From NCBI GenBank assembly GCA_903875045.1, contig CAIQUS010000060.1, forward strand, positions 5,690 to 69,689: a stretch of 64,000 bases of DNA. Reading direction: 5' to 3'. The notes under the pieces were generated by a model. It did not search any database, was not told the origin of the DNA, and saw only the letters and a list, made by a program, of their open reading frames with translations. Both the position numbers and the translations under genes were made by a program. Positions 2,660 through 62,766 of this stretch are shown piece after piece (the first letter of the stretch is position 1; every line of letters begins with the position of its first letter). Source of the DNA: an uncultured Bacteroidales bacterium (lineage in GTDB: Bacteria > Bacteroidota > Bacteroidia > Bacteroidales > FEN-979).

Positions 2660-3892
2660 TCAGAGGCTTCCTTCATCGTATGCTTTTTCTCCATGCAACG
2701 CCACATCCAGGCCTTGTTTTTCATGTTGTTCCGACACACGCACCTTTGTTACCAGGTTGATCAATGCCAGCATGATGTAGGTGAAAATGAAGGCGTAGGC
2801 TGAAGCGGCAATTACAGTGATCAGTTGTTTAAGGAAAAATGAACTTTGTCCAAACCACAATCCTTCGGTTATAACGGCCGGGTTGATCATTTTTGTGGCG
2901 AAAACGCCAAGCAGAATGGTTCCAAGCACACCGCCGATTCCATGAACTCCCCATACATCGAGCGCGTCATCCCAATTCAACTTGTTTTTTAATTGTACAG
3001 CCAGGTAACATGTCACACCGGCCGCTACTCCGATGATGGGCGCCGACCACATGGGGACAAATCCCGCGCATGGAGTGATGGTTGCCAAACCGGCAATGGA
3101 ACCTGTCAACAGCCCAAGAAGTTTCGGACGCCCTTCGCGGATCCATTCAATGGCCACCCAGGCTGCCGTTGCAAAGGATGCTGCAACATCCGTATTAATA
3201 AATGCCAGCGCTGTGATTTTATCTACCTGTAACTCACTGCCGGCATTGAAACCGTACCATCCAAACCATAATAAACCACTCCCGATGGCAACAAGGGGGA
3301 TACTGTTGGGCGTCGAATTTTTATCTGATCGGGCACCTACATAAAATACCGAAGCCAGGGCTGCAAAACCTGCGGTGGCATGTACTACAATCCCACCTGC
3401 AAAATCAAGAACACCCCATTGCGCGAGCAACCCGTTTCCCCAGATCATGTGCACAAACGGATAGTACACCATGATCTGCCAAACAGTCAGAAAGATCATG
3501 TATGACCTGAAGGTTACACGATTTACAAACGCACCTGTAATGAGGGCCGGGGTGATGATTGCAAACATCATCTGGTAAACAATGAAAACAATTTCGGGGA
3601 TTTTTCCGTTGCCTGAATAAATGGAATCGATCGTAATACCGTTCAGAAAGATTTTATCCAGGTTCCCGAAAATCCCGCCTTCTCCGCCACTGAAACAAAG
3701 CGAATATCCGAATGTGACCCATAAAACAGTTGTCCAACCTAAAGAGGCGAAACTTTGTATCATGATCCCCAATATGTTCCTTTTCGTGGCCAGGCCACCA
3801 TAAAAAAACGCCAGTGCCGGCGTCATTAACATAACCAGGCTTGCCGATAACAGCATAAACCCGGTTGATCCAACATCGATTGTGCCTGTCAT
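2660..3892 (-). CDS. amt: Ammonium transporter (Amt family)
   Basis: 410 aa, 11-12 TM segments. 'FMLLSASLVMLMTPALAFFYGGL' and 'VHATAGFAALA' are classic Amt/AmtB motifs. Confidence 0.95.
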   Translation of the reverse strand: MTGTIDVGSTGFMLLSASLVMLMTPALAFFYGGLATKRNILGIMIQSFASLGWTTVLWVTFGYSLCFSGGEGGIFGNLDKIFLNGITIDSIYSGNGKIPEIVFIVYQMMFAIITPALITGAFVNRVTFRSYMIFLTVWQIMVYYPFVHMIWGNGLLAQWGVLDFAGGIVVHATAGFAALASVFYVGARSDKNSTPNSIPLVAIGSGLLWFGWYGFNAGSELQVDKITALAFINTDVAASFATAAWVAIEWIREGRPKLLGLLTGSIAGLATITPCAGFVPMWSAPIIGVAAGVTCYLAVQLKNKLNWDDALDVWGVHGIGGVLGTILLGVFATKMINPAVITEGLWFGQSSFFLKQLITVIAASAYAFIFTYIMLALINLVTKVRVSEQHEKQGLDVALHGEKAYDEGSL

Positions 3893-3894
3893 AC

Positions 3895-3933
3895 AATTTT
3901 AGATTTACGATTTACGATTTACGATTTATGATC
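3895..3933. repeat. Tandem heptamer array (GATTTAC, ~5 units) in the porin-amt spacer
   Basis: aatttta gatttac gatttac gatttac gatttat gatc. Confidence 0.9.
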
Positions 3934-3948
3934 TCTTTTATTCGCATG

Positions 3949-4776
3949 CTACAGTGATAGACCAAATACCAAAAACACACTCTGCGCCTGAGGATTGGTT
4001 ATTACAGAGCCAAACAGGGGCAGAGAATAATCTTTTGTAATGGTGAGGGATTTGGTAATGGTCAATCCGGCATTGATCACCCCGGCTGATGGCCCGTACC
4101 AGGATGAACCAAAGGGAATTCCGCCGACAAATGGTTTGAGTCCGAAACCTTTGACATTAAACTGGTAAGCTGCTTCAAAATAGGTGGAGTAGTTGTTCTT
4201 GTTTCCGGTTCCGTAAACACCAGTAGAATCTTTCCCTTTATCAGCACCATAAACCAGCGTACCCGCGTAGAGTTGCAGAGGGAATTTTTCAGGACCTGCC
4301 CATGACAGGCAAATCTCGACCGTATGACCGGTTGTTTTATTTTTAAAATTGAAGTATTTGTTTCCGTTATTTGGTTCCAGGGAATTAGGCAAAAAGTAAT
4401 CGTAGGCCATAATGGTGAAGCCTTTTAACGTATAAGAAAGGTAAAAATCAACCTCTGCATAATGGCCCATGTTTGCAATCGTTGAATCGTTGATTTGTCG
4501 GGAATACGCTCCAAGACCGTAAGAACCCCAGAAACCGGCTTTGAACCCCGCAACTGAAAAGGCAATAGCCGGCTGAATGGCAGGTGAATTCCCATAATCG
4601 GTACCCCGCCAGATGTAGCGGCTTACCAGGTCGGCACCAGCGCTAAATGTGGCAGCGCTGCTGGTGGTATCTTCCATTTTGTTTTCATCCTGTAACTGGG
4701 CAAATGAAAGCGATGCAAGCGATATAAAAAAAGCTGCAAGTACAATTGATTTGAAAAAGGCTGTTTCCATTTTCAT
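3949..4776 (-). CDS. Putative outer-membrane beta-barrel porin encoded upstream of amt
   Basis: Start chosen at internal Met giving signal peptide 'MKMETAFFKSIVLAAFFISLASLSFAQ'. Alternating aromatic/Gly-rich beta-strand pattern and a C-terminal aromatic-rich strand. Same strand as amt, 56 nt upstream. Confidence 0.5.
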   Translation of the reverse strand: MKMETAFFKSIVLAAFFISLASLSFAQLQDENKMEDTTSSAATFSAGADLVSRYIWRGTDYGNSPAIQPAIAFSVAGFKAGFWGSYGLGAYSRQINDSTIANMGHYAEVDFYLSYTLKGFTIMAYDYFLPNSLEPNNGNKYFNFKNKTTGHTVEICLSWAGPEKFPLQLYAGTLVYGADKGKDSTGVYGTGNKNNYSTYFEAAYQFNVKGFGLKPFVGGIPFGSSWYGPSAGVINAGLTITKSLTITKDYSLPLFGSVITNPQAQSVFLVFGLSL

Positions 4777-4790
4777 TGCGATGTGTTTTT

Positions 4791-4816
4791 TGTTAATAAT
4801 TTCACATGCAATATTA
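4791..4816 (-). promoter_or_regulatory. TAATATTG box followed by a CRP/FNR-type palindrome (TGTGAAATTATTAACA) just upstream of the porin-amt operon
   Basis: Minus-strand reading is taatattg-ca-tgtgaaattattaaca, ending 14 nt before the porin ATG. There is one half-site mismatch to TGTGA-N6-TCACA. Confidence 0.4.
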
Positions 4817-4985
4817 CCACAGCCGGATTGTTCACACAATCCTGTAAACTACTGAATTTTAATAAGCTAAAACCGGGGGAAATACTACGTGGTTTCCGTA
4901 GGTTCAAAAGGGCAAACTCTTATGCAGCAGGGCGATTTTATATCGGAGATATCGTCAAAAATAATCCTCCGGCTTTCCATCATGG

Positions 4986-5645
4986 TTAAATTTCCACAAT
5001 TTTGTTCCTGATGGCATATTTAATCAGTTCAACGGTCGACTTCAGCTCCAGCTTTTTCATAATATGGTTTTTATGGGTTTCCACCGTACGGATACTGATA
5101 TCCAGCTGATCGCTGATCTCCTTGTTGATAAAACCTTCGGCAAATAGTTTTAGGATTTCTATCTCTCTGGTAGTAAGTGAAATGGAATTCCCAGGGGAAG
5201 TCATGTCATCTTCCTTTGCTTTTCGTACATAACTTTTCAGCATGATACGTGAGATGGAATCCGAAAAAAACTCTTCCCCTTCGTAAATGGCATGAATGGC
5301 ATTCAGGAGTTCCTCCCTGGAGGTGTTTTTTGGCAGGTAACCGCGGGCGCCTGCTTTTACCGAATTAAAAATGAAATCCTCATTGGTGTACATGGAGAGA
5401 ATGAGTACCCTGGTGGCAGGATACTCTGCTGAAATCCGTTTGGTGATCTCAATGCCATTGGTATCAGGTAATGAGATGTCGAGGATAAGGATATCGGGTG
5501 GTTCAATGGCAATTTTTTCAAAACACTCTCTGCCTGAGGAGGCTTCTCCCAGAATATGGAGTTCTTCGGCACTGATCAGCAACGATTTAATTCCATCCCT
5601 GACAAGTTGGTGGTCATCAACGAGAAAAATTCTGATTTTTGGCAT
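4986..5645 (-). CDS. NarL/LuxR-family two-component response regulator (REC + HTH_LuxR)
   Basis: 219 aa. 'IFLVDDHQLVRDG', 'ILILDISLPDTNG' and a C-terminal 'LTTREIEILKLFAEGFINKEISDQLDISIRTVETHKNHIMKKL' LuxR HTH. Confidence 0.9.
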   Translation of the reverse strand: MPKIRIFLVDDHQLVRDGIKSLLISAEELHILGEASSGRECFEKIAIEPPDILILDISLPDTNGIEITKRISAEYPATRVLILSMYTNEDFIFNSVKAGARGYLPKNTSREELLNAIHAIYEGEEFFSDSISRIMLKSYVRKAKEDDMTSPGNSISLTTREIEILKLFAEGFINKEISDQLDISIRTVETHKNHIMKKLELKSTVELIKYAIRNKIVEI

Positions 5646-7422
5646 AAGTTGTAATAATTGGTACTTTTAAAATGATTGTTGTTCCCTGCAAAGGGGTAGA
5701 GCGTATATCTATTTGTCCTTGTAATAAAATTGCCCGTTCACGCATGTTGTGAATTCCGTTTCCACTGTTGTTTACAATGGTTTCGGGTGAGAAACCTTTG
5801 CCGTCATCGCAGATCATCAGGGTCAGCAGGTCAGTGTCAAGGTAAAGGGTAACTTTCACCTCACGGGCTTCGGCATGTTTTACAATGTTATTCAAGGCCT
5901 CCTGTGTTAGTCTGTAAATATAGGTTTTAATCTTCTTATCCAGTTCGTCAAAATTTCCTTTGGCTTCAAAATGAATACGCAAGCCACTGTGTTCTTCCGT
6001 TTCAGAAAAGAGGTTTCTGAAAGCGATTGGTATACTGAAAACTTCAAGAACAGAAGGCATGAGATTGTTCGAAATACGACGGACTTCATCGATAATCTGA
6101 TCAAAATAGTTCTTCAATTCCTGGATGGAGTTCCTGATGTCTTTCCCATCCTGATACAATAAATTTTCCAGTCGTAGTTTGATTGCTATGAGCGACTGCC
6201 CGATACCATCGTGCAGCTCGCGCGACAAACGCTGGCGTTCCATCTCTTCACCGTCAAATACCGATTGAATCCTTCCGAATCTTTCGCTTTGGAGTTCAGT
6301 GGTTTTCTCTTTGATCTGTCGGGCCATGATGTTAAAGGAATTGGTAAGTGACCCGATCTCATCCCGGGTGTTGACAGGGAGGTCGATGTCGTAAGTGCCT
6401 TTTCCCAGGTTAACGGTTGCATCCCGAAGCAGGATCAGTGGTTTGGTGATTCGTCGGGAAATGAACCAAACCAGTGCAAAAAATATGACCATGATGATTA
6501 CGCTCAATAACAGAATACGCGTACGTGTCTCGTAGATCGGGATCATCGCCTCTTTAAGGTCTATTTCGGCCAGAATCGCCCAGTTCAGTCCGGGAACATC
6601 AATCAAACTATAGGATGAAAGCACCGGCACCCCGCGGTAATCATTGGTTGCAATGGCACCCGAAATACCGCTGATTGCATCTGTAGCCGATTGTGTTTTA
6701 ACTAAGGTCCGTAAGATGGAATTTGGCTGGAACCTGGAGGTTGACCGCATCAGATAATCCGGGCCCACCAGGTAAGTCTCACCACTTGACCCAAGGCCAT
6801 TCAAAGGATCATTGTTCAGCATGATGGTGTTAATTGCCTGAATTGAAACCGCAAGAATCAGGATAGTTCCACCAGATTTGTTGTCTTTCGCGGGGCTGTT
6901 AGTTTTGATGGCGATCAACTGAAACGGTTCCCCATTGTGTTTATCTGTTAAGAAGTCGGTAATAACCACGTTCCTGTCGTTCACTTGTGCCCTGAGTGCC
7001 GATAAAATATTTTCTGGGATTACAGGAGGGCAAACAACAAGGGTGTCATTTACGCCACCCTTCATTAAAATCCCTTCTCGCCCCAGGATGTAGAATGCTG
7101 TGAAATAATTTCCCGGCAACCGGAGCGCTGCGATGAGTTTCTCCCACTCCCGGTGGCTCCTGCCTTCATCCGTTAAAGGTGAGGTGGGTGGAATGGAGCC
7201 TGCCATCATGGCCAGCAAGGTGATATCCCTTGTCCTGTCGGCATAGAATTGCCTGATTTGATTTTTTTTTACGATCCGGAGAGAAGTAAGCTGATCAAAG
7301 GTGCGGCTCATCAGCGCTTCCCTGGTGTTGTAAAAGGAGACGGTCGTGATGATCGTGATGGAGCCAATACCCAATAATACAAAGTATAGAATTAGTTTCT
7401 CGGTAAGCGTGCTGACCTTCAT
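5617..7422 (-). CDS. Sensor histidine kinase (extracytoplasmic Cache-like domain, HAMP, HisKA_3, HATPase_c)
   Basis: 601 aa with two TM segments flanking a ~270-aa periplasmic region. 'LSRELHDGIGQSL' HisKA_3 H-box and 'GNGIHNMRERA...GTTIILKVP' ATPase motifs. Overlaps the cognate regulator by 29 nt. Confidence 0.85.
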   Translation of the reverse strand: MKVSTLTEKLILYFVLLGIGSITIITTVSFYNTREALMSRTFDQLTSLRIVKKNQIRQFYADRTRDITLLAMMAGSIPPTSPLTDEGRSHREWEKLIAALRLPGNYFTAFYILGREGILMKGGVNDTLVVCPPVIPENILSALRAQVNDRNVVITDFLTDKHNGEPFQLIAIKTNSPAKDNKSGGTILILAVSIQAINTIMLNNDPLNGLGSSGETYLVGPDYLMRSTSRFQPNSILRTLVKTQSATDAISGISGAIATNDYRGVPVLSSYSLIDVPGLNWAILAEIDLKEAMIPIYETRTRILLLSVIIMVIFFALVWFISRRITKPLILLRDATVNLGKGTYDIDLPVNTRDEIGSLTNSFNIMARQIKEKTTELQSERFGRIQSVFDGEEMERQRLSRELHDGIGQSLIAIKLRLENLLYQDGKDIRNSIQELKNYFDQIIDEVRRISNNLMPSVLEVFSIPIAFRNLFSETEEHSGLRIHFEAKGNFDELDKKIKTYIYRLTQEALNNIVKHAEAREVKVTLYLDTDLLTLMICDDGKGFSPETIVNNSGNGIHNMRERAILLQGQIDIRSTPLQGTTIILKVPIITTYAKNQNFSR

Positions 7423-7500
7423 GGTTTTTTACTACTTTTGAATCCTTTCAATCTGAAAGGGAACAGGATCACCGGACAAACATAATAAAAATAAACATCT

Positions 7501-9870
7501 ATGGGGTCACGATTTGTAAGGGAAACACGTAAATGTTTCTTTATTATCTGTCTGATTTGTATTTTTATCAATCCTGAGAAGTTGGCTGGGCAGCAAAAAA
7601 CTGTTACCTATTATGCTGATCCTTCAGCCATCCCGCCTGATTTGCCGATCACCATCAAGCACCTCAACGCCCATATCAGCTTCAAACCAGAGAAAAACCT
7701 TGTGGTTGGTACTGCAGAATTTTACTTTATTCCAAACCGGCAGCCAATCGATTCCATTGTTTTCCATGCACCGGATTTCAAGGTTACTTCCGTTAAGATA
7801 AATGACAAAGAGGTTAAGTTTCATCAAACCGGCAGCAATCTGGTTGTCCATCCTGATTCAGTGCCATGGAAATCACCTCTTAAACACATGGTATCAAGCC
7901 TGTCTTCCATACTTATCACTTATACCGCCACCCCGCTTGCCGGCCTGATATATTTTATCGGCTGGCAGCCAGGGGAGGAGGGCAAGCGCAAACAGATTTG
8001 GGCACACCGCCCCCATGGCTGGATTCCATACATAGACGGACGCATCACCGTCGATATGTTTATTACGTTTGATAGTAAGTCCAAGGTTTTTTCCAATGGC
8101 GAACGGATGGAGGTAAAGGAAAATCGTGACGGCACCAAAACCTGGCATTATGCCATGAAAAAGGATCACCCGTTTTTTTCCACATCATTGGTTATAGGTG
8201 ATTACAATTTTAAAAGCACAAAAACCTCACGCGGGGTACCACTTGAATTCTGGTACTATTCCGATATGCCCGAACGGGTTGGCACTACCTATATGTACAC
8301 CGAACGAATGTTCGATTTTCTTGAAAAGGAGCTGGGATTCAACTATCCCTATTCACAATACCGCGAAGCGCCTGTGATTGATTATATGTACGGAGCCATG
8401 GAAACCACTACCAGTACCGTATTTGGCGACTATATGCAGATCACACCAAGAGCCTGGTGGCAGCGGAATTATGTAAACGTAAATGTCCATGAACTCGCTC
8501 ATCAGTGGTTTGGAAATTGTGTGGCGCATTACGTGAACAGAGATGTATGGCTTACAGAGAGTTTTGCCACCTATTATGCCAAAATGTTTGAAAAGAGTAT
8601 TTTCGGGGACGATTATTATCAAAATATCCGAAATGATGAAATGCGCCTTACCTTCGAGGCAGCTAAAAATAATGATTATCCCGTTGGTGGAAGCCAGGGC
8701 GGGGTTCAGCGGATATATCAAAAAGGTTCCCTGGTTCTGGAAATGCTTAACACTGTGATGGGTGACCGTGCTTTTCGGGATGCTGTTCAGTCTTATTTGA
8801 ATAAATTTGCCTTCGGGTATGCCGAAACAAGCGATTTTATGCGATGTGTTTATGAGGCATCAGGAAAACCCTATAACTGGTTTTTCGACCAATGGATACT
8901 CCGGGGTGGTGAGCCAGAATACCTTGTGAAGGATTCTGTTTCAAATGATTCACTGGAAAACAGATATACGATCTTTAGGATCTGGCAGGTGCAGAAAGTC
9001 AATGAATTGAATGGACTTTTTAAAATGCCGGTTGAATTTGAAGTCCATTACCAGGATGGTACCAGCGACCGGGTGAAAACGTGGATTGAAAAACAATATT
9101 CGGAGGTTTCTGTGCCAAATCCCCAAAAGAAGCCGATAAGGTTTTTGCTGTTTGACCCAAACCGGAAAATCCTGAAAAAAGTAACATTTGCAAAAACTTT
9201 TGAAAATCTCATTGCCCAGGCAGTGAATGCAGACAACATGGTTGACCGGTATGATGCATGGATGGCGCTGCGGCCAGAGCCGGTAGCCAGAAAATCCGAC
9301 TTTCTTATCTCTGCATTCCGCAAAGAAACATTCTGGTTGATCCGGTCGGAGATCCTACAGCAACTTGCGTACGACAAATCTCCGGAGTCAGTGGAGGTAT
9401 TCCGGCAGGCCTTGCACGACAAGGATGCCAATGTACGGAGAACCGCTCTCATGACGCTAAACCCGGTACCGGAATTGCTTCAGAGCACAGTGGAAGCGTT
9501 GTTGTACGATTCGAGTTATCTGAATGTGGAATATGCACTGCAGGCGCTATGTGTCTCATTTCCAAAAAATGTTGATCAGTATCTTGACCTCACCAGGGAC
9601 ATGGAGGGGTGGCGTGGAAAGAATATCAGGATGATGTGGATTGCTGTTGCCCTTGCCAATGGGAAAACGGAATATCTGCCTGAACTCATCAGCTATAGTA
9701 GCCCTAAGTTCGAATTCGAGACCAGAATGAATGCGTTTAATCTTTTGAAAAAGCTAAAATACAGCGACCCTGAAACAAAAAAATACGCTGAAGGTGCCAG
9801 TAAACATTGGAATTATAAACTGAGTGGCGCTGCAAAGGAATACTTGAAAGAGGTGAAAATTGAAAATTAG
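7501..9870 (+). CDS. M1-family zinc aminopeptidase with C-terminal HEAT-like repeats
   Basis: 789 aa with a signal peptide. 'VHELAHQWFGN' HEXXH plus a downstream 'WLTESFATY' glutamate, which is the gluzincin M1 signature. Confidence 0.85.
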   Translation: MGSRFVRETRKCFFIICLICIFINPEKLAGQQKTVTYYADPSAIPPDLPITIKHLNAHISFKPEKNLVVGTAEFYFIPNRQPIDSIVFHAPDFKVTSVKINDKEVKFHQTGSNLVVHPDSVPWKSPLKHMVSSLSSILITYTATPLAGLIYFIGWQPGEEGKRKQIWAHRPHGWIPYIDGRITVDMFITFDSKSKVFSNGERMEVKENRDGTKTWHYAMKKDHPFFSTSLVIGDYNFKSTKTSRGVPLEFWYYSDMPERVGTTYMYTERMFDFLEKELGFNYPYSQYREAPVIDYMYGAMETTTSTVFGDYMQITPRAWWQRNYVNVNVHELAHQWFGNCVAHYVNRDVWLTESFATYYAKMFEKSIFGDDYYQNIRNDEMRLTFEAAKNNDYPVGGSQGGVQRIYQKGSLVLEMLNTVMGDRAFRDAVQSYLNKFAFGYAETSDFMRCVYEASGKPYNWFFDQWILRGGEPEYLVKDSVSNDSLENRYTIFRIWQVQKVNELNGLFKMPVEFEVHYQDGTSDRVKTWIEKQYSEVSVPNPQKKPIRFLLFDPNRKILKKVTFAKTFENLIAQAVNADNMVDRYDAWMALRPEPVARKSDFLISAFRKETFWLIRSEILQQLAYDKSPESVEVFRQALHDKDANVRRTALMTLNPVPELLQSTVEALLYDSSYLNVEYALQALCVSFPKNVDQYLDLTRDMEGWRGKNIRMMWIAVALANGKTEYLPELISYSSPKFEFETRMNAFNLLKKLKYSDPETKKYAEGASKHWNYKLSGAAKEYLKEVKIEN

Positions 9871-35095: not shown

Positions 35096-36469
<1,374 letters not shown>

Positions 36470-36515: not shown

Positions 36516-36537
36516 TGTGAAATAATTCACAATATTA
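36516..36537 (-). promoter_or_regulatory. TAATATTG box overlapping a perfect CRP/FNR-type palindrome TGTGA-N6-TCACA upstream of gdhA
   Basis: Plus strand tgtgaaataattcaca at 36516-36531. On the minus strand a taatattg box overlaps the palindrome by 2 nt. The site is 62-77 nt upstream of the gdhA ATG. Confidence 0.45.
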
Positions 36538-36633
36538 AATAAAATTTCTGACAGCAAAGTTATAAAATTGATTTTTTTTTTGATAAAGATTTATAATTCA
36601 ATTTGATAAGAAATATACGTACCGTAAATACGT

Positions 36634-36651
36634 AATACACGTATGTGTATT
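36634..36651. promoter_or_regulatory. Small hairpin/inverted repeat within a cluster of ACGTA motifs in the gdhA-hydrogenase intergenic region
   Basis: aatacac-gtat-gtgtatt gives a 7-bp stem. tacgta occurs at 36616 and 36629 and cacgta at 36638. Confidence 0.3.
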
Positions 36652-36832: not shown

Positions 36833-37942
36833 ATGGAGAATCAGAGACCTTCTTTTTACGAGGAAGCCATAGGGAAAGGTGTGTCCCGACGGGATTTCCT
36901 TAAGTTTTGCGCCACCATGGCAGCCTTTCTTGGATTGGAAGCCAGTGGCGTGAGCCAAATAGTGAAAGCACTTGAATCAAAGCCCAGGCTTCCTGTGATT
37001 TGGTTCCATTTTCAGGAATGTACATGCTGCAGTGAGTCTTTCATCCGGGCATCGCATCCGTTGGTTGCAGATATTGTTCTGAATAAAATTTCCCTCGACT
37101 ATCAGGAAACATTGATGGCCGCCTCCGGAGTTCAGGCTGAAGATGCATACAAAGCGGTGATGCAGAAATACCCCGGTGAATACATTGTAATGGTTGAAGG
37201 TTCCATCCCTACTGAAAATGAGGCCTATTGTTGTATCGGAGGCCGAAGTGCGCTTCAGATTCTTCAGGAAGCTGTAAAAAATTGCAAGGCTGTGGTGGCC
37301 TGGGGTAATTGCGCTTCTGCCGGATGTGTTCAGGCTGCAAGCCCCAATCCAACCGGTGCAAAACCAGTTCATAAAGTTATCAGCGGCAAACCGGTTATCA
37401 ATGTGCAGGGCTGTCCGCCTATTGCCGATGTTATGGCTGGTGTTGTTGTCCACTTGCTTACATTCGACCGCATTCCACAGTTAGACGGATTAGGCCGCCC
37501 GAAAGCCTTTTATTCGCGCAGGGTGCACGACACTTGCTACCGCAGGGCCAATTTCGATGCCGGTTTATTTGTTGAATCATTCGATGATGAAGGTGCAAAG
37601 CGTGGTTATTGCCTCTATAAAATGGGATGCAAAGGTCCTGTTACCTACAACGCATGCGGAATTATCAAATGGAACGACAGTGTTAGTTACCCTATTCAGT
37701 CGGGGCATCCCTGTATAGGATGTGCAGAAGCCGGATTTTGGGACAACGGCCCGTTCTATCAGCACCTGCCTGAAGTCGCAGGATTCGGTATCGAAACCAC
37801 TGCCGACAAAATTGGAGTGGGTCTCGGAGTTGCTACGGCGGTCGGTATTGCCGGCCATGCCATTGTAACCAACATCCGCAAACATAAAGAGATTATAAAT
37901 GAAGAACCTGAAGCAGGTTCCACAGTTGAAACCAAGAAATAA
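36833..37942 (+). CDS. hyaA: [NiFe] hydrogenase small subunit (Tat-exported)
   Basis: 369 aa. 'SRRDFLKFCATMAA' twin-arginine signal, Cys clusters for three Fe-S centres ('CTCCSES', 'GCPP', 'CIGCAE') and a C-terminal TM anchor. Confidence 0.95.
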   Translation: MENQRPSFYEEAIGKGVSRRDFLKFCATMAAFLGLEASGVSQIVKALESKPRLPVIWFHFQECTCCSESFIRASHPLVADIVLNKISLDYQETLMAASGVQAEDAYKAVMQKYPGEYIVMVEGSIPTENEAYCCIGGRSALQILQEAVKNCKAVVAWGNCASAGCVQAASPNPTGAKPVHKVISGKPVINVQGCPPIADVMAGVVVHLLTFDRIPQLDGLGRPKAFYSRRVHDTCYRRANFDAGLFVESFDDEGAKRGYCLYKMGCKGPVTYNACGIIKWNDSVSYPIQSGHPCIGCAEAGFWDNGPFYQHLPEVAGFGIETTADKIGVGLGVATAVGIAGHAIVTNIRKHKEIINEEPEAGSTVETKK

Positions 37943-37950
37943 TCATAGCC

Positions 37951-39669
37951 ATGGCAGAAAGAATCGTAATAGATCCCATCACCCGCATTGAAGGTCACCT
38001 GCGGGTTGAAATTGAAATCCAGGATGGTAAAATCACCGATGCCTTCAGTGCAGGCACCATGGTGCGAGGCATCGAAACTATTTTAAAAGGCCGCGATCCG
38101 AGGGATGCATGGGCTTTTGTAGGCCGGGTATGCGGAGTTTGTACTTCAACCCATTCACTAACCTCTGTGAGAACGGTCGAAAACGCCTTAGGCATTGCTG
38201 TACCTCCCAATGCTGAACTCATCCGGAACCTGATGGCCAACGCATTGTACATTCAGGACCATGTTGTTCATTTTTACCAGCTGCATGCCCTCGACTGGGT
38301 GGATGTGGTGTCGGCACTCAAAGCCAATCCGGCCGAAGCATCGCGGATCGCACAAAGCATATCCCCCTGGGCTAAAAGTTCTGTTGGTTATTTCACGGAC
38401 ATCCAGAAGAAATTTAAAAATTTCGTCGACAGCGGCCAGTTGGGCATTTTTGCCAATGGATACTGGGGGCACAAGGCTTACAAACTACCCCCTGAAGTGA
38501 ACCTCATTGCGGTTGCACATTATCTTGAAGCACTCGAATGGCAAAAAGAACTTGTGAAGGTCCATACCGTTTTTGGCGGAAAAAACCCTCATCCCAACTA
38601 CCTGGTTGGTGGCGTTCCCTGCTCAATCAATATTGATGAGGCCAATGCAGTGAATGCAGAACGCCTTGCGTTTGTCGGCAAACTGTTTGAGGATGCCAAG
38701 ACCTTCGTTGATCAGGTTTATATTCCGGATTTACTGGCAATTGCTTCCTTTTATAAAGACTGGGGCGCAATTGGCGGAGGTTTGACGAATTATTTGTCTT
38801 TCGGTGATTTCCCGTCCAATGGCTATAACAATCCTGAGAGTTTCAAAATGCCACGCGGTGCCATATTGGGACGTGACCTCAGCAAAATCCATGAAGTTAA
38901 GGCTGAAGACCCTGAACAGATTCAGGAGTACATCAACAATTCGTGGTATGAATATTCCAAGGGTGACAAAACCGGACTGCATCCCTGGGATGGAGAAACC
39001 AAATTTAACTATACCGGGCCCAAACCTCCGTATGAACAACTGGATGTTTCACAGAAGTACAGTTGGGTGAAAACCCCGCGCTGGAAAGGAAACCCGATGG
39101 AAGTTGGACCACTGTCACGCATGCTTGTGGGCTACGCTTCCGGCAGGGCAGATTACAAGGAGGTAATCGAAAGCACCTTGAAAACACTTGATGTACCAGT
39201 TGCCGCTTTATTCTCAACACTTGGCAGAACAGCCGCCAGGGGGCTTGAAACCAAGTTGGTGTGCGGATGGGCGCTGGAGTTTTATCAACAACTTCTTGCC
39301 AACATCAAGAATGGTGATTCCCGTACCCAAAATAACGCAAAATGGGAACCTGAATCCTGGCCTAAACAGGCAAAAGGCATTGGTATGGTGGAAGCTCCCC
39401 GCGGTGCTTTGTCGCATTTCATTGTCATCGAAGACAAAAAAATTGCGAATTATCAATTGGTTGTGCCTACTACCTGGAATGCTTCACCCCGCGATTTAAA
39501 GGGTCAACGCTCGGCCTTCGAGGAATCCCTGATCGGAACTCCGGTAGCTGATCCGAAAATTCCGCTTGAGGTGCTTCGTACCATTCACTCCTTCGATCCT
39601 TGCCTGGCTTGTGCCGTGCATTTGTATGACGAAAATGGAACTACCATTCATGACCTGAAAACCTATTAA
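37951..39669 (+). CDS. hyaB: [NiFe] hydrogenase large subunit
   Basis: 572 aa. 'RIEGHLR', N-terminal 'RVCGVCTSTH' and C-terminal 'DPCLACAVH' Ni-binding motifs, followed by a 15-aa extension typical of protease-processed large subunits. Confidence 0.95.
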   Translation: MAERIVIDPITRIEGHLRVEIEIQDGKITDAFSAGTMVRGIETILKGRDPRDAWAFVGRVCGVCTSTHSLTSVRTVENALGIAVPPNAELIRNLMANALYIQDHVVHFYQLHALDWVDVVSALKANPAEASRIAQSISPWAKSSVGYFTDIQKKFKNFVDSGQLGIFANGYWGHKAYKLPPEVNLIAVAHYLEALEWQKELVKVHTVFGGKNPHPNYLVGGVPCSINIDEANAVNAERLAFVGKLFEDAKTFVDQVYIPDLLAIASFYKDWGAIGGGLTNYLSFGDFPSNGYNNPESFKMPRGAILGRDLSKIHEVKAEDPEQIQEYINNSWYEYSKGDKTGLHPWDGETKFNYTGPKPPYEQLDVSQKYSWVKTPRWKGNPMEVGPLSRMLVGYASGRADYKEVIESTLKTLDVPVAALFSTLGRTAARGLETKLVCGWALEFYQQLLANIKNGDSRTQNNAKWEPESWPKQAKGIGMVEAPRGALSHFIVIEDKKIANYQLVVPTTWNASPRDLKGQRSAFEESLIGTPVADPKIPLEVLRTIHSFDPCLACAVHLYDENGTTIHDLKTY

Positions 39670-39672
39670 GCC

Positions 39673-40395
39673 ATGAGAAACCGATCTGTCCCTTTGCGTG
39701 AGGTGCATGTGTGGGAGATGCCTGTCCGTGTCTACCATTGGATCAATGCACTGTGTATAACCACGCTGTGTGTTACCGGTTACTTAATCGGTGACCCTCT
39801 TGCCTTGATGAATGGCACAGAAGCCTATTTCAACTATTGGTTCGGAACTGTCAGGTTCATTCATTTTATCAGCGCTTTCCTGTTCTTTTTCAATTTCATT
39901 TTTCGGTTATATTGGGGTTTTACAGGGAATGAATTTTCACGGTGGTACAATTATATCCCACTCAAACGCTGTCAATGGAAAGAGATGCTTGATGTAATTA
40001 AAGTTGATGTGCTTCAGGTAACCAATAAAAAGATTGATTCAATTGGCCATAATTCTCTGGCTAGTTTTATCTATTTTATTACTTTCCTTATCTTCCTGCT
40101 GCAATGTCTTACCGGTTTCGGAATGTATGCTGCCATGAGTAATGCTTTTCTGCCTAAACTATTTGCCTGGGTGGTTCCATTTCTCGGGGGAGACATGAAT
40201 GTACGTCAAATCCATCATATCCTGATGTGGGCTTTCATCCTCTTCGCGATGGTGCACATGTATCTGGTATTTTATCATGATTATATCGAACGTCGCGGAG
40301 TTACATCTTCCATGATCGGTGGCTGGAAATTCATCGAAGAAGATGTGATTGAGCGTCACGATAACAAATCGGAAGATTGCCCTAAAAAGTTATAA
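39673..40395 (+). CDS. hyaC: Ni/Fe-hydrogenase b-type cytochrome subunit
   Basis: 240 aa with 4 TM segments. 'RVYHWINALCI' and conserved His residues of the CybH/HyaC family. Confidence 0.85.
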   Translation: MRNRSVPLREVHVWEMPVRVYHWINALCITTLCVTGYLIGDPLALMNGTEAYFNYWFGTVRFIHFISAFLFFFNFIFRLYWGFTGNEFSRWYNYIPLKRCQWKEMLDVIKVDVLQVTNKKIDSIGHNSLASFIYFITFLIFLLQCLTGFGMYAAMSNAFLPKLFAWVVPFLGGDMNVRQIHHILMWAFILFAMVHMYLVFYHDYIERRGVTSSMIGGWKFIEEDVIERHDNKSEDCPKKL

Positions 40396-40414
40396 CTTCT
40401 AAATAGCAGCGCGT

Positions 40415-40903
40415 TTGTCTGACCTGCAAAATGATATCCTGGTTCTCGGGATCGGTAATTTATTGATGAATGATGAAGGTGTGGGAATCCATGCAGTTAC
40501 CCGTTTGGAAAAGGAGGGGATAAAGGGGGCCGACACAATGGATGGTGGTACAGGCGGGTTTCATCTGCTGGCTTTTATACAGTCCTATAAGATTATCATC
40601 ATCATTGATGCCTCACTTGATCAGTTTCCTCCCGGGCATGTGAGGGTTTTACAACCGCGTTACGCAAAAGATTTCCCAAAGCAGTTGAGTGCCCATGAAA
40701 TAGGGCTTAAAGACTTGATCGATTCAGCTATTTTATTGGGAAATATGCCTGAACTTCACCTGGTTGCCATTTCTGTGAATGATTTTCAGGATATGGGAAT
40801 GGATCTTTCACCGGAAGTGGAAGGTGCAATCCCATTGGCAATCAGGCATGTCAGGGCAATTGTTGAAAAGAACTCTTCATCCCGTCCCAACCCTGCGCAG
40901 TGA
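40415..40903 (+). CDS. hyaD: Hydrogenase maturation endopeptidase
   Basis: 162 aa, TTG start. 'ILVLGIGNLLMNDEGVGIHA', 'IIIIDA' and 'SAHE' motifs of the HyaD/HybD family. Confidence 0.85.
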   Translation: MSDLQNDILVLGIGNLLMNDEGVGIHAVTRLEKEGIKGADTMDGGTGGFHLLAFIQSYKIIIIIDASLDQFPPGHVRVLQPRYAKDFPKQLSAHEIGLKDLIDSAILLGNMPELHLVAISVNDFQDMGMDLSPEVEGAIPLAIRHVRAIVEKNSSSRPNPAQ

Positions 40904-62470: not shown

Positions 62471-62532
62471 AATATATGAATTAATTCACAAGTTTAATAT
62501 AAAATTCATGAATAGGTTCCTATATTTTAATA

Positions 62533-62572
62533 AATGGCGAAATGTCGAAATGGCGAAATAGCGAAATCAGAT
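62533..62572 (+). repeat. Tandem octamer array (AATGGCGA type, 5 units)
   Basis: aatggcga aatgtcga aatggcga aatagcga aatcagat. This is the reverse complement of the CCATTTCG word family. Confidence 0.9.
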
Positions 62573-62587
62573 TTCCTGTAAATAATC

Positions 62588-62671
62588 CCGTACCTACGGC
62601 ACGGAAAATCATTATAATTACTGACCGGCTATCAATATTTGGCTCCTACGGAGCCGAAAGGTAAATTCGCC
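62588..62671 (+). repeat. 84-nt double-hairpin element, copy 2
   Basis: Same two hairpins with the same 53-nt spacing as copy 1. It is flanked by inverted arrays (62533-62572 and 62663-62694). Confidence 0.85.
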
Positions 62672-62766
62672 ATTTCGCCATTTTCCCATTTTCCCTGTTT
62701 ACCCGTTCACCTGTTTCCCTTTCCACCTGCCCACTCGCCCACTTGCCCACTTGCCCACCTGGTCAC
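62663..62766 (+). repeat. Tandem octamer array, 13 units, with a stepwise gradient of unit types, abutting the oxidoreductase stop codon
   Basis: aaattcgc catttcgc cattttcc x2 ctgtttac ccgttcac ctgtttcc ctttccac ctgcccac tcgcccac ttgcccac x2 ctggtcac. Confidence 0.95.

Follow-up and report, generated by a model that had tools for sequence, protein, structure and literature searches.

A dyad-symmetric element on the predicted transcription starts of gdhA and porin-amt in uncultured Bacteroidales, and a second motif shared with a neighbouring two-component system

How are the genes for ammonium uptake and ammonium assimilation brought under common control in the Bacteroidota? An expression study of Prevotella ruminicola found amtB, the gene of a neighbouring membrane protein and gdhA to be strongly co-regulated, and named no regulator (PMC5552732). 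The question is raised anew by a 64-kb stretch of DNA from an uncultured Bacteroidales bacterium ("the window", by which the whole of the analysed stretch is meant), where a 16-bp palindrome of the type bound by CRP/FNR-family proteins lies upstream of two nitrogen-related transcription units. One is gdhA, encoding NADP-specific glutamate dehydrogenase (35096-36454, minus strand); the other is a porin-amt operon (2660-4776, minus strand) composed of a Gcw_chp/TorF-type porin gene (3949-4776, minus strand, with its ATG at 4776) followed by the gene of an Amt-family ammonium transporter (2660-3892, minus strand). A first interpretation of the window, made from its letters and open reading frames (ORFs) and termed here the sequence-only reading, took the palindrome as a shared operator of these genes. 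Its gene identifications were borne out by Pfam and NCBIfam, GdhA scoring 767 bits against an NCBIfam cutoff of 536. The operon includes no glnK, and the window holds no nitrogen-assimilation genes other than gdhA and amt.

The palindrome is most likely a real repressor-binding site, as predicted from its conservation and placement. More specifically, with a probability of roughly 0.6, it would be the operator of a dimeric helix-turn-helix regulator, with the consensus TGTKAA-N4-TTMACA, that represses at the predicted transcription start. For the main nitrogen regulon, stronger candidates are a second motif, conserved more broadly in the species compared, and a two-component system encoded beside amt.

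Loci compared

The window's GdhA is 97% identical to that of the metagenome-assembled genome contig CAIYES010000017. Comparison was made with 80 gdhA loci from species-representative genomes and with 33 metagenome porin-amt loci, supplemented by loci found through exact-protein look-up; site counts for the operon use 29 porin upstream regions. The loci (about 120, cited by L numbers where individual ones matter) contain 1165 ORFs, and the motif scans covered 757 kb. The gdhA and porin-amt loci of the relatives come from different assemblies, so that no gdhA/amt pair derives from one relative genome. Chance expectations for upstream regions were obtained from dinucleotide shuffles, and non-ORF DNA lying elsewhere in these loci (144.5 kb) served as background control.

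The palindrome and its conservation

The gdhA copy, TGTGAAATAATTCACA at 36516-36531, is a perfect TGTGA-N6-TCACA (in fuller form TGTGAA-N4-TTCACA) and scores 23.9 with the position weight matrix (PWM) described below. Sequence, coordinates and the match to both half-sites are as the sequence-only reading gave them, and so is the 2-nucleotide overlap of the palindrome with an adjoining octamer: positions 36530-36537 have caatatta on the plus strand and TAATATTG on the minus strand, from which gdhA is read. Read along that minus strand, the composite is TTTAATATTGTGAATTATTTCACA, followed by 61 nucleotides and the ATG at 36454. Upstream of the porin, the coding-strand copy TGTGAAATTATTAACA occupies 4791-4806 and begins 2 nucleotides downstream of the same octamer; the minus strand of 4791-4816 thus reads TAATATTG-CA-TGTGAAATTATTAACA, with 14 nucleotides remaining before the porin ATG. 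The proposal that one composite stands before both genes therefore holds for the sequence, the coordinates and the 14-nucleotide spacing. It does not hold for the register, which changes from a 2-nucleotide overlap at gdhA to a 2-nucleotide gap at amt, a shift of 4 nucleotides. Every site has the architecture of a CRP/FNR-type dyad (16 bp, N6 between the pentamers, 10 bp between TGT and ACA); those at gdhA match TGTGA-N6-TCACA perfectly, and those at amt read TGTGA-N6-TAACA. That the two are versions of one conserved dyad-symmetric element common to the gdhA and porin-amt promoters is supported by comparison across species, and with it the idea of a shared operator.

The pattern TGTKA-N6-TMACA occurs upstream of the porin in 15 of 29 loci, where shuffles predict 0.03, and upstream of gdhA in 4 of 80, where 0.19 is expected. 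A similar frequency in intergenic DNA at large had been named beforehand as the observation that should count against the site; the frequency found in the control DNA was one match per 144.5 kb. When the PWM, built from 20 sites, was run over the 757 kb, a score of at least 18 was reached by the training sites and by one further pair (L102/L103). From the cross-species loci, the control DNA and the PWM scan it follows that the element is real and highly specific. The exceptional pair (L102/L103:2410) was rejected as a CRP-like site; in our judgement it represents half of a second-motif site. The window taken alone has 2 matches to TGTKA-N6-TMACA against 0.30 expected (a count of 2 was reached in 5 of 100 shuffles) and 4 against 2.56 when one mismatch to TGTGA-N6-TCACA is allowed, an enrichment that is only suggestive. 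A near-match in the window, TATGAATTAATTCACA at 62475-62490 (PWM 17.0), lies 5 nucleotides upstream of a DUF4143/AAA_14 ATPase gene; the key G is missing from it, and we attribute it to chance.

At gdhA the palindrome is kept in the four closest species (L001, L002, L004 and L005) and is joined to TAATAT identically in each. The window and L001 share TGTGAATTATTTCACA, L002 has TGTGAAAGAATTCACA (with AAGAAT in the centre), L004 has TGTGAAAAATTTCACA (with AAAATT), and the L005 site, TGTGAAATTATTAACA, is identical to the amt site of the window. At porin-amt, 17 related promoters keep the palindrome at an unchanged position, the porins encoded downstream sharing only 69-80% identity. In the alignment of these promoters the left half (TGTGAA) carries 1.95 bits per position and the right half (TTAACA) 1.85, compared with 0.96 for the 4-nucleotide centre and 0.88 for the promoter spacer; since the centre has been randomised while the half-sites stayed near-invariant, the half-sites appear to be under constraint. 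At amt, as judged from these alignments, a family-level clade has kept the predicted start-site operator; gdhA acquired it only in the immediate relatives of the window.

Other dyads were observed in these upstream regions. The amt promoter spacer of the window holds a perfect inverted repeat, GGATTGT-GTGA-ACAATCC (4826-4843), which includes an extra TGTGAA half-site 30 nucleotides upstream of the main TGTGAA; it is specific to the window, the spacers of the relatives being unrelated. More distant porin-amt promoters (L097 and L098:2440-2475) have other palindromes after the -7 box, such as GTCAA-N8-TTGAC in L098, and it may be that the specificity of a start-site operator was changed in these lineages rather than the site lost.

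Core promoters and the predicted start

The primary sigma factor of the Bacteroidota recognizes a -7 element, TAnnTTTG, usually accompanied by TTTG near -33, and the most frequent length of the 5' untranslated region (UTR) in Bacteroides is 23 nucleotides (PMC7366714). The octamer TAATATTG (36530-36537, minus strand, at gdhA) departs from this sigma-A-type consensus by a single mismatch, A for T at the fifth position. Its counterpart before the porin (4809-4816, minus strand) is TAATATTG in the window and TAACATTG, also with one mismatch, in the relatives. Of the 80 gdhA loci, 13 have the exact octamer between -49 and -70 relative to the start of the gene, and in 8 of these there is no palindrome and the sequence that follows is unrelated. 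By this comparison the octamer is a predicted -7 promoter box in its own right, independent of the operator, much as the sequence-only reading had proposed in calling it a near -7 element.

A candidate -33 element, TTTG, lies 17 nucleotides upstream of the gdhA box (36555-36558, minus strand), and CTTTGCTGTCAGAAA is also present in L001. At amt, a candidate ATTG 20 nucleotides from the -7 box is part of a near-invariant block, TTAAAATTCAGTAGTTTACAGGATTG (4837-4866, minus strand). The starts predicted from the boxes imply a 5' UTR of about 25 nucleotides for the operon, in agreement with the Bacteroides mode, and a leader of about 68 nucleotides for gdhA. A near-consensus -7 box, a TTG-type -33 element at 17-21 nucleotides and a short UTR from the predicted start are thus all found, as for a Bacteroidota sigma-A promoter. 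The portion of the amt block directly upstream of -33 (TTAAAATTCAGTAGTTTACAGG, 4841-4866 on the minus strand, about 25 nucleotides) is near-invariant in 17 species; it is not palindromic and resembles neither the CRP-like nor the second motif; inspection of the invariant block by eye gave no match to a sigma-54 promoter (TGGCAC-N5-TTGCA).

The palindrome starts within the gdhA -7 box and, at amt, 2 nucleotides past the box; in both promoters it would thus cover the predicted transcription start. The difference in register indicates that promoter box and operator are separate parts of the composite, which is not one fixed unit; a shift of 4 nucleotides would be tolerable for an occluding repressor, and is not what is expected of a fixed core-promoter element.

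Nature of the predicted binding protein

The proposed mechanism is as follows. A dimeric helix-turn-helix protein would bind TGTKAA-N4-TTMACA at the core promoter of porin-amt and, in a narrow clade, at that of gdhA; once bound, it would block RNA polymerase at the predicted start and so repress transcription. Some 70-100 bp farther upstream, one or two copies of the second motif, TAMGTR-N3-YACKTA, would be bound by a NarL-type response regulator, with activation as the result. The amt and gdhA promoters would then be two-input devices, each with an upstream activator site and a start-site repressor site. The dimeric binder is suggested by the dyad symmetry of the 16-mer, its invariant TGT and ACA triplets and its free, AT-rich centre, and steric repression is suggested by the position of the operator on the predicted start. 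A protein of the CRP/NtcA family is the best guess for the binder, on account of the TGT-N10-ACA spacing. Nitrogen is a plausible signal, since amt and gdhA would both be targeted; in Prevotella the two genes rise together on ammonium as compared with peptides (PMC5552732).

A number of observations weigh against this interpretation, or against parts of it. The gdhA site is absent from L003, whose GdhA is 92% identical, and from every more distant species, so that gdhA would be a recent and minor target. The left half-site at amt is contiguous with an invariant stretch, TAACATTGCA, and part of its conservation could reflect promoter constraint. The right half-site at amt is always TAACA, and the C that is thereby lost belongs to the C:G pair most critical for E. 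coli CRP. The repressor position depends on the assignment of the -7 box and hence on a predicted start. As to the protein itself, Pfam found no CRP/FNR gene in the 64-kb window, a phmmer search with E. coli CRP and FNR as queries (of limited sensitivity) gave no match among the 1165 ORFs around gdhA and amt in the roughly 120 loci, and the flanks of L001-L005 contain no ORF of regulator size (about 200 residues).

The failure to find a CRP/FNR gene nearby leaves some room for a real operator read by another kind of protein, such as a GlnR/TnrA-like nitrogen repressor of the MerR type or a member of another helix-turn-helix family that recognizes TGTNA...TNACA. The fourth position of the half-sites is degenerate (G or T on one side, C or A on the other), as it is in the GlnR/TnrA consensus TGTNA-N7-TNACA (PMC3412718), and GlnR represses nitrogen genes, amtB included, from sites that overlap promoters. 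Such a protein nevertheless seems unlikely here: the spacer is N6 (16 bp) and not N7 (17 bp) in all 20 or more sites, TGT-N10-ACA is the spacing of CRP and NtcA, and a MerR-type gene was not seen nearby either.

Still less probable is that the element is no regulator site at all, with TGTGAA an extension of the core promoter or initiation region, TTAACAAA part of an A-rich leader needed for Shine-Dalgarno-independent translation, and the symmetry incidental. The amt promoters lend themselves to this, in that TAACATTGCATGTGAA is invariant without a break and the leader that follows the palindrome keeps part of its sequence (AAAnCACAT). The gdhA promoters do not: perfect 6+6 palindromes with differing centres occur in four independent ones, in the eight others that share the box the sequence beyond it is unrelated, and the leader of about 68 nucleotides puts the palindrome far from the start codon. 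The 4-nucleotide difference between gdhA and amt in placement against the -7 box speaks the same way.

The idea that the palindrome works as an RNA or DNA hairpin, for example as an attenuator or as a stem that stabilises the mRNA from its 5' end, is largely refuted: the gdhA versions can fold as a 6-bp stem with a 4-nucleotide loop (-3.9 to -4.8 kcal/mol), but a G-A mismatch is conserved in every amt version and none of these folds (0 kcal/mol), there are no compensatory changes, the predicted start falls inside the palindrome, and an Rfam scan of the whole window returned no family at its gathering score. Chance occurrence of two matches in AT-rich intergenic DNA, which the weak enrichment in the window alone (4 against 2.56) and the near-match at 62475 before an unrelated ATPase gene might seem to favour, is refuted by the same promoter position being kept in more than 20 loci, by the shuffle expectations of 0.03 and 0.19 and by the single match in the control DNA.

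A second motif and the adjacent two-component system

The second element was searched for as TAMG-N7-CKTA and has the symmetrised consensus TAMGTR-WWW-YACKTA; positions outside the search pattern are also biased (T in 69%, R in 94%). Neither this motif nor the conserved two-component system next to amt was part of the sequence-only reading. In the 757 kb there are 62 matches, 49 of them in target promoters. Within 300 nucleotides upstream of gdhA there are 27 sites in 20 of the 80 loci, distant ones included, where about 1 is expected from shuffles. The corresponding regions upstream of the porin have 19 sites, nearly always at about -122 from the porin ATG; the motif is present in 17 of 29 loci against 0.29 expected. 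The whole window holds 6 matches (1.34 expected; 6 reached in none of 100 shuffles), 3 of which, beginning at 4886, 36607 and 36629, are in the upstream regions of the porin and gdhA. By these counts the conservation of the motif reaches further than that of the CRP-like site.

The two gdhA copies in the window are TACGTATATTTCTTA (site B, 36607-36621) and TACGTGTATTACGTA (site A, 36629-36643), both given on the gdhA strand; such pairs, 22-23 nucleotides apart, are also present in L001-L005. The porin-amt copy is TACGGAAACCACGTA on the coding strand (4886-4900). A further copy at 7517-7531 precedes the kinase gene of the two-component system by about 95 nucleotides, a placement typical of autoregulation; downstream of it, at 7477-7484, comes a perfect -7 box, TATGTTTG. 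In all five species whose sequence covers this region the motif is found 95-110 nucleotides upstream of the kinase gene.

The two-component system (4986-7422, minus strand) is encoded directly upstream of porin-amt. It consists of a histidine kinase (5617-7422, minus strand) with HAMP, HisKA_3 and HATPase domains according to Pfam, and a NarL/LuxR-type response regulator (4986-5645, minus strand) with a receiver and a GerE helix-turn-helix domain. Relatives of the system in the PDB are VraR, NarL and DesK, the closest solved relatives of the regulator being VraR and NarL. About 275 residues of the kinase form a periplasmic domain, for which Pfam, at E values up to 10, gave nothing meaningful; a PDB search matched the kinase core only, and a single-sequence AlphaFold model of the domain had a mean pLDDT (predicted local distance difference test) score of 29.5 and was unusable. 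In NCBIfam, the kinase, the response regulator and the porin all fall below family cutoffs and are assigned to no specific family. The gene order is kept in the relatives: M1 peptidase, then kinase, NarL-type regulator, porin and amt, then a stand-alone receiver of 120 residues, then panC (in the window, 4986-7422 on the minus strand and 2296-2658 on the plus strand). Response regulators from the amt loci of these species share 86-92% identity.

What is seen agrees with a NarL/FixJ-type regulon: the domain composition, a HisKA_3 kinase, and sites, at which binding is predicted, upstream of amt, gdhA and the system's own operon. Co-localisation, the autoregulation-type site and family precedent make the response regulator the likely binder of the second motif, probably as an activator, and on these grounds we regard binding by the adjacent regulator as probable.

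The association extends to gdhA in other lineages. In 10 other species (L027, L042, L010, L013, L014, L015, L022, L024, L031 and L059) a homologue 37-46% identical to the regulator, with an invariant recognition helix, is encoded directly upstream of gdhA, and 6 of the 10 also carry the second motif upstream of gdhA. In these gdhA-adjacent regulators, N, V or S stands in place of the phospho-acceptor aspartate. In L027 (29-2543) and L042 (140-2877) the upstream partner of the regulator is not a histidine kinase but a PPDK_N protein of 618-692 residues (ATP-grasp, phosphoenolpyruvate-synthase-like). The loss of the aspartate together with the PPDK_N partner hints at a non-canonical input mechanism. 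L010, L014, L022 and L024 were observed to have a variant, TGCGTGTTTTACTGA, about 100-150 nucleotides upstream of gdhA in place of TACGT-N5-ACGTA, which suggests that motif and regulator subfamily may have co-evolved.

These parts can be assembled, tentatively, into a two-tier circuit of environmental Bacteroidales, for which no NtrC/NtcA/GlnR-type system is described. In it the promoters of amt, gdhA and the two-component operon itself would be controlled by a NarL-type regulator that binds the second motif and takes its input from a kinase with a novel periplasmic sensor; a CRP/NtcA-like repressor would act at the start site, and sister lineages would use the aspartate-less variant with its PPDK_N partner. 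The circuit as a whole is a possibility on the doubtful side.

Neighbouring genes and intergenic repeats

Divergent from gdhA in the window is an operon for a group 1-type NiFe hydrogenase (36833-40903, plus strand) with genes for the small subunit, the large subunit, cytochrome b and the HycI protease. The 378-nucleotide region between gdhA and the hydrogenase operon is common to the window and L001 only. The operon was considered as a target of the palindrome and rejected, as L002, L004 and L005 keep the palindrome without that neighbour.

Imperfect intergenic repeats of short period (about 7-8 nucleotides), such as GGCGAAAT, TAGGCAA and TTTGTCA, were noted at 62530-62760 in the window and upstream of the porin in L081, L089, L092 and L093. 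Those of the window are in opposite orientation around a central segment. They may represent a family of intergenic repeat elements.

Significance

Searches of the literature located no described nitrogen-assimilation transcriptional regulator or motif for the Bacteroidota, nor a TGTGA-type CRP motif in the phylum, in keeping with the opinion of the sequence-only reading that nitrogen control is poorly characterised there. Against this background the predicted regulon appears to be real and new. The analysis yields two conserved cis-elements, a candidate regulator (the NarL-type protein with its kinase) and an operator for a second, CRP-like repressor, so that nitrogen sensing in the Bacteroidota becomes addressable by experiment. 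The scope is limited, with the start-site operator confined to one family-level clade of uncultured Bacteroidales and to two known targets; prediction of operators by phylogenetic footprinting is routine, and in kind this is an ordinary transcription-factor operator.

Comparison with known systems

The closest formal likeness is to the operator of E. coli CRP, which has the same 16-bp dyad, a consensus identical to the gdhA sites, the same TGT-N10-ACA spacing and an AT-rich, variable centre. The differences are TAACA in one half of the amt sites, the nitrogen-gene targets, and the sigma factor and promoters of the host phylum. E. coli CRP can repress from sites that overlap promoters, and this provides the comparison for the predicted operator.

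NtcA, the 2-oxoglutarate-responsive nitrogen regulator of the CRP family in cyanobacteria, was the analogy offered by the sequence-only reading. It holds for spacing (TGTA-N8-TACA in NtcA sites, TGTK-N8-MACA here) and for the choice of targets, which in cyanobacteria include amt and nitrogen-assimilation genes. It fails for position and for the predicted mechanism: NtcA activates from a class II site near -41.5 that replaces the -35 element, whereas the present element spans the predicted start and would repress. The NtcA core, GTA-N8-TAC, is likewise replaced in all sites by GTG/GTT-N8-CAC/AAC, the fourth position of the half-site being G or T and not A. NtcA is also able to repress from promoter-overlapping sites. 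No NtcA-like gene was found in the window or the loci compared.

The GlnR/TnrA box of Bacillus shares the nitrogen targets (among them amtB), the outer triplets and the degenerate fourth position, and GlnR is a repressor; that box has a spacer 1 bp longer (17 bp in place of 16, every site here having 6 nucleotides), and its readers are MerR-family proteins of Firmicutes. Within the phylum, the predicted motif of the Bacteroides Crp protein BT4338, TATGTTnTAnAACATA, belongs to a sugar-catabolism regulon with predicted activation (PMC3878776). It shares with the present element the CRP-family connection and the TGT and ACA cores, and differs in that these are only 6 bp apart (TGTT-N4-AACA), in the sugar regulon and in activation as the outcome.

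For the second motif, the systems to compare are NarL, whose sites are inverted TACYYMT heptamers, and GacA/UvrY, whose box is TGTAAG-N6-CTTACA. Common to these and to the Bacteroidales motif are a palindrome with outer TAC/TAAG...GTA/CTTA, a regulator of that family (here encoded alongside) and a site of the autoregulation type. What sets the Bacteroidales system apart is its spacing, TAMG-N7-CKTA, the periplasmic domain of about 275 residues in its kinase, and gdhA and amt as its predicted targets.

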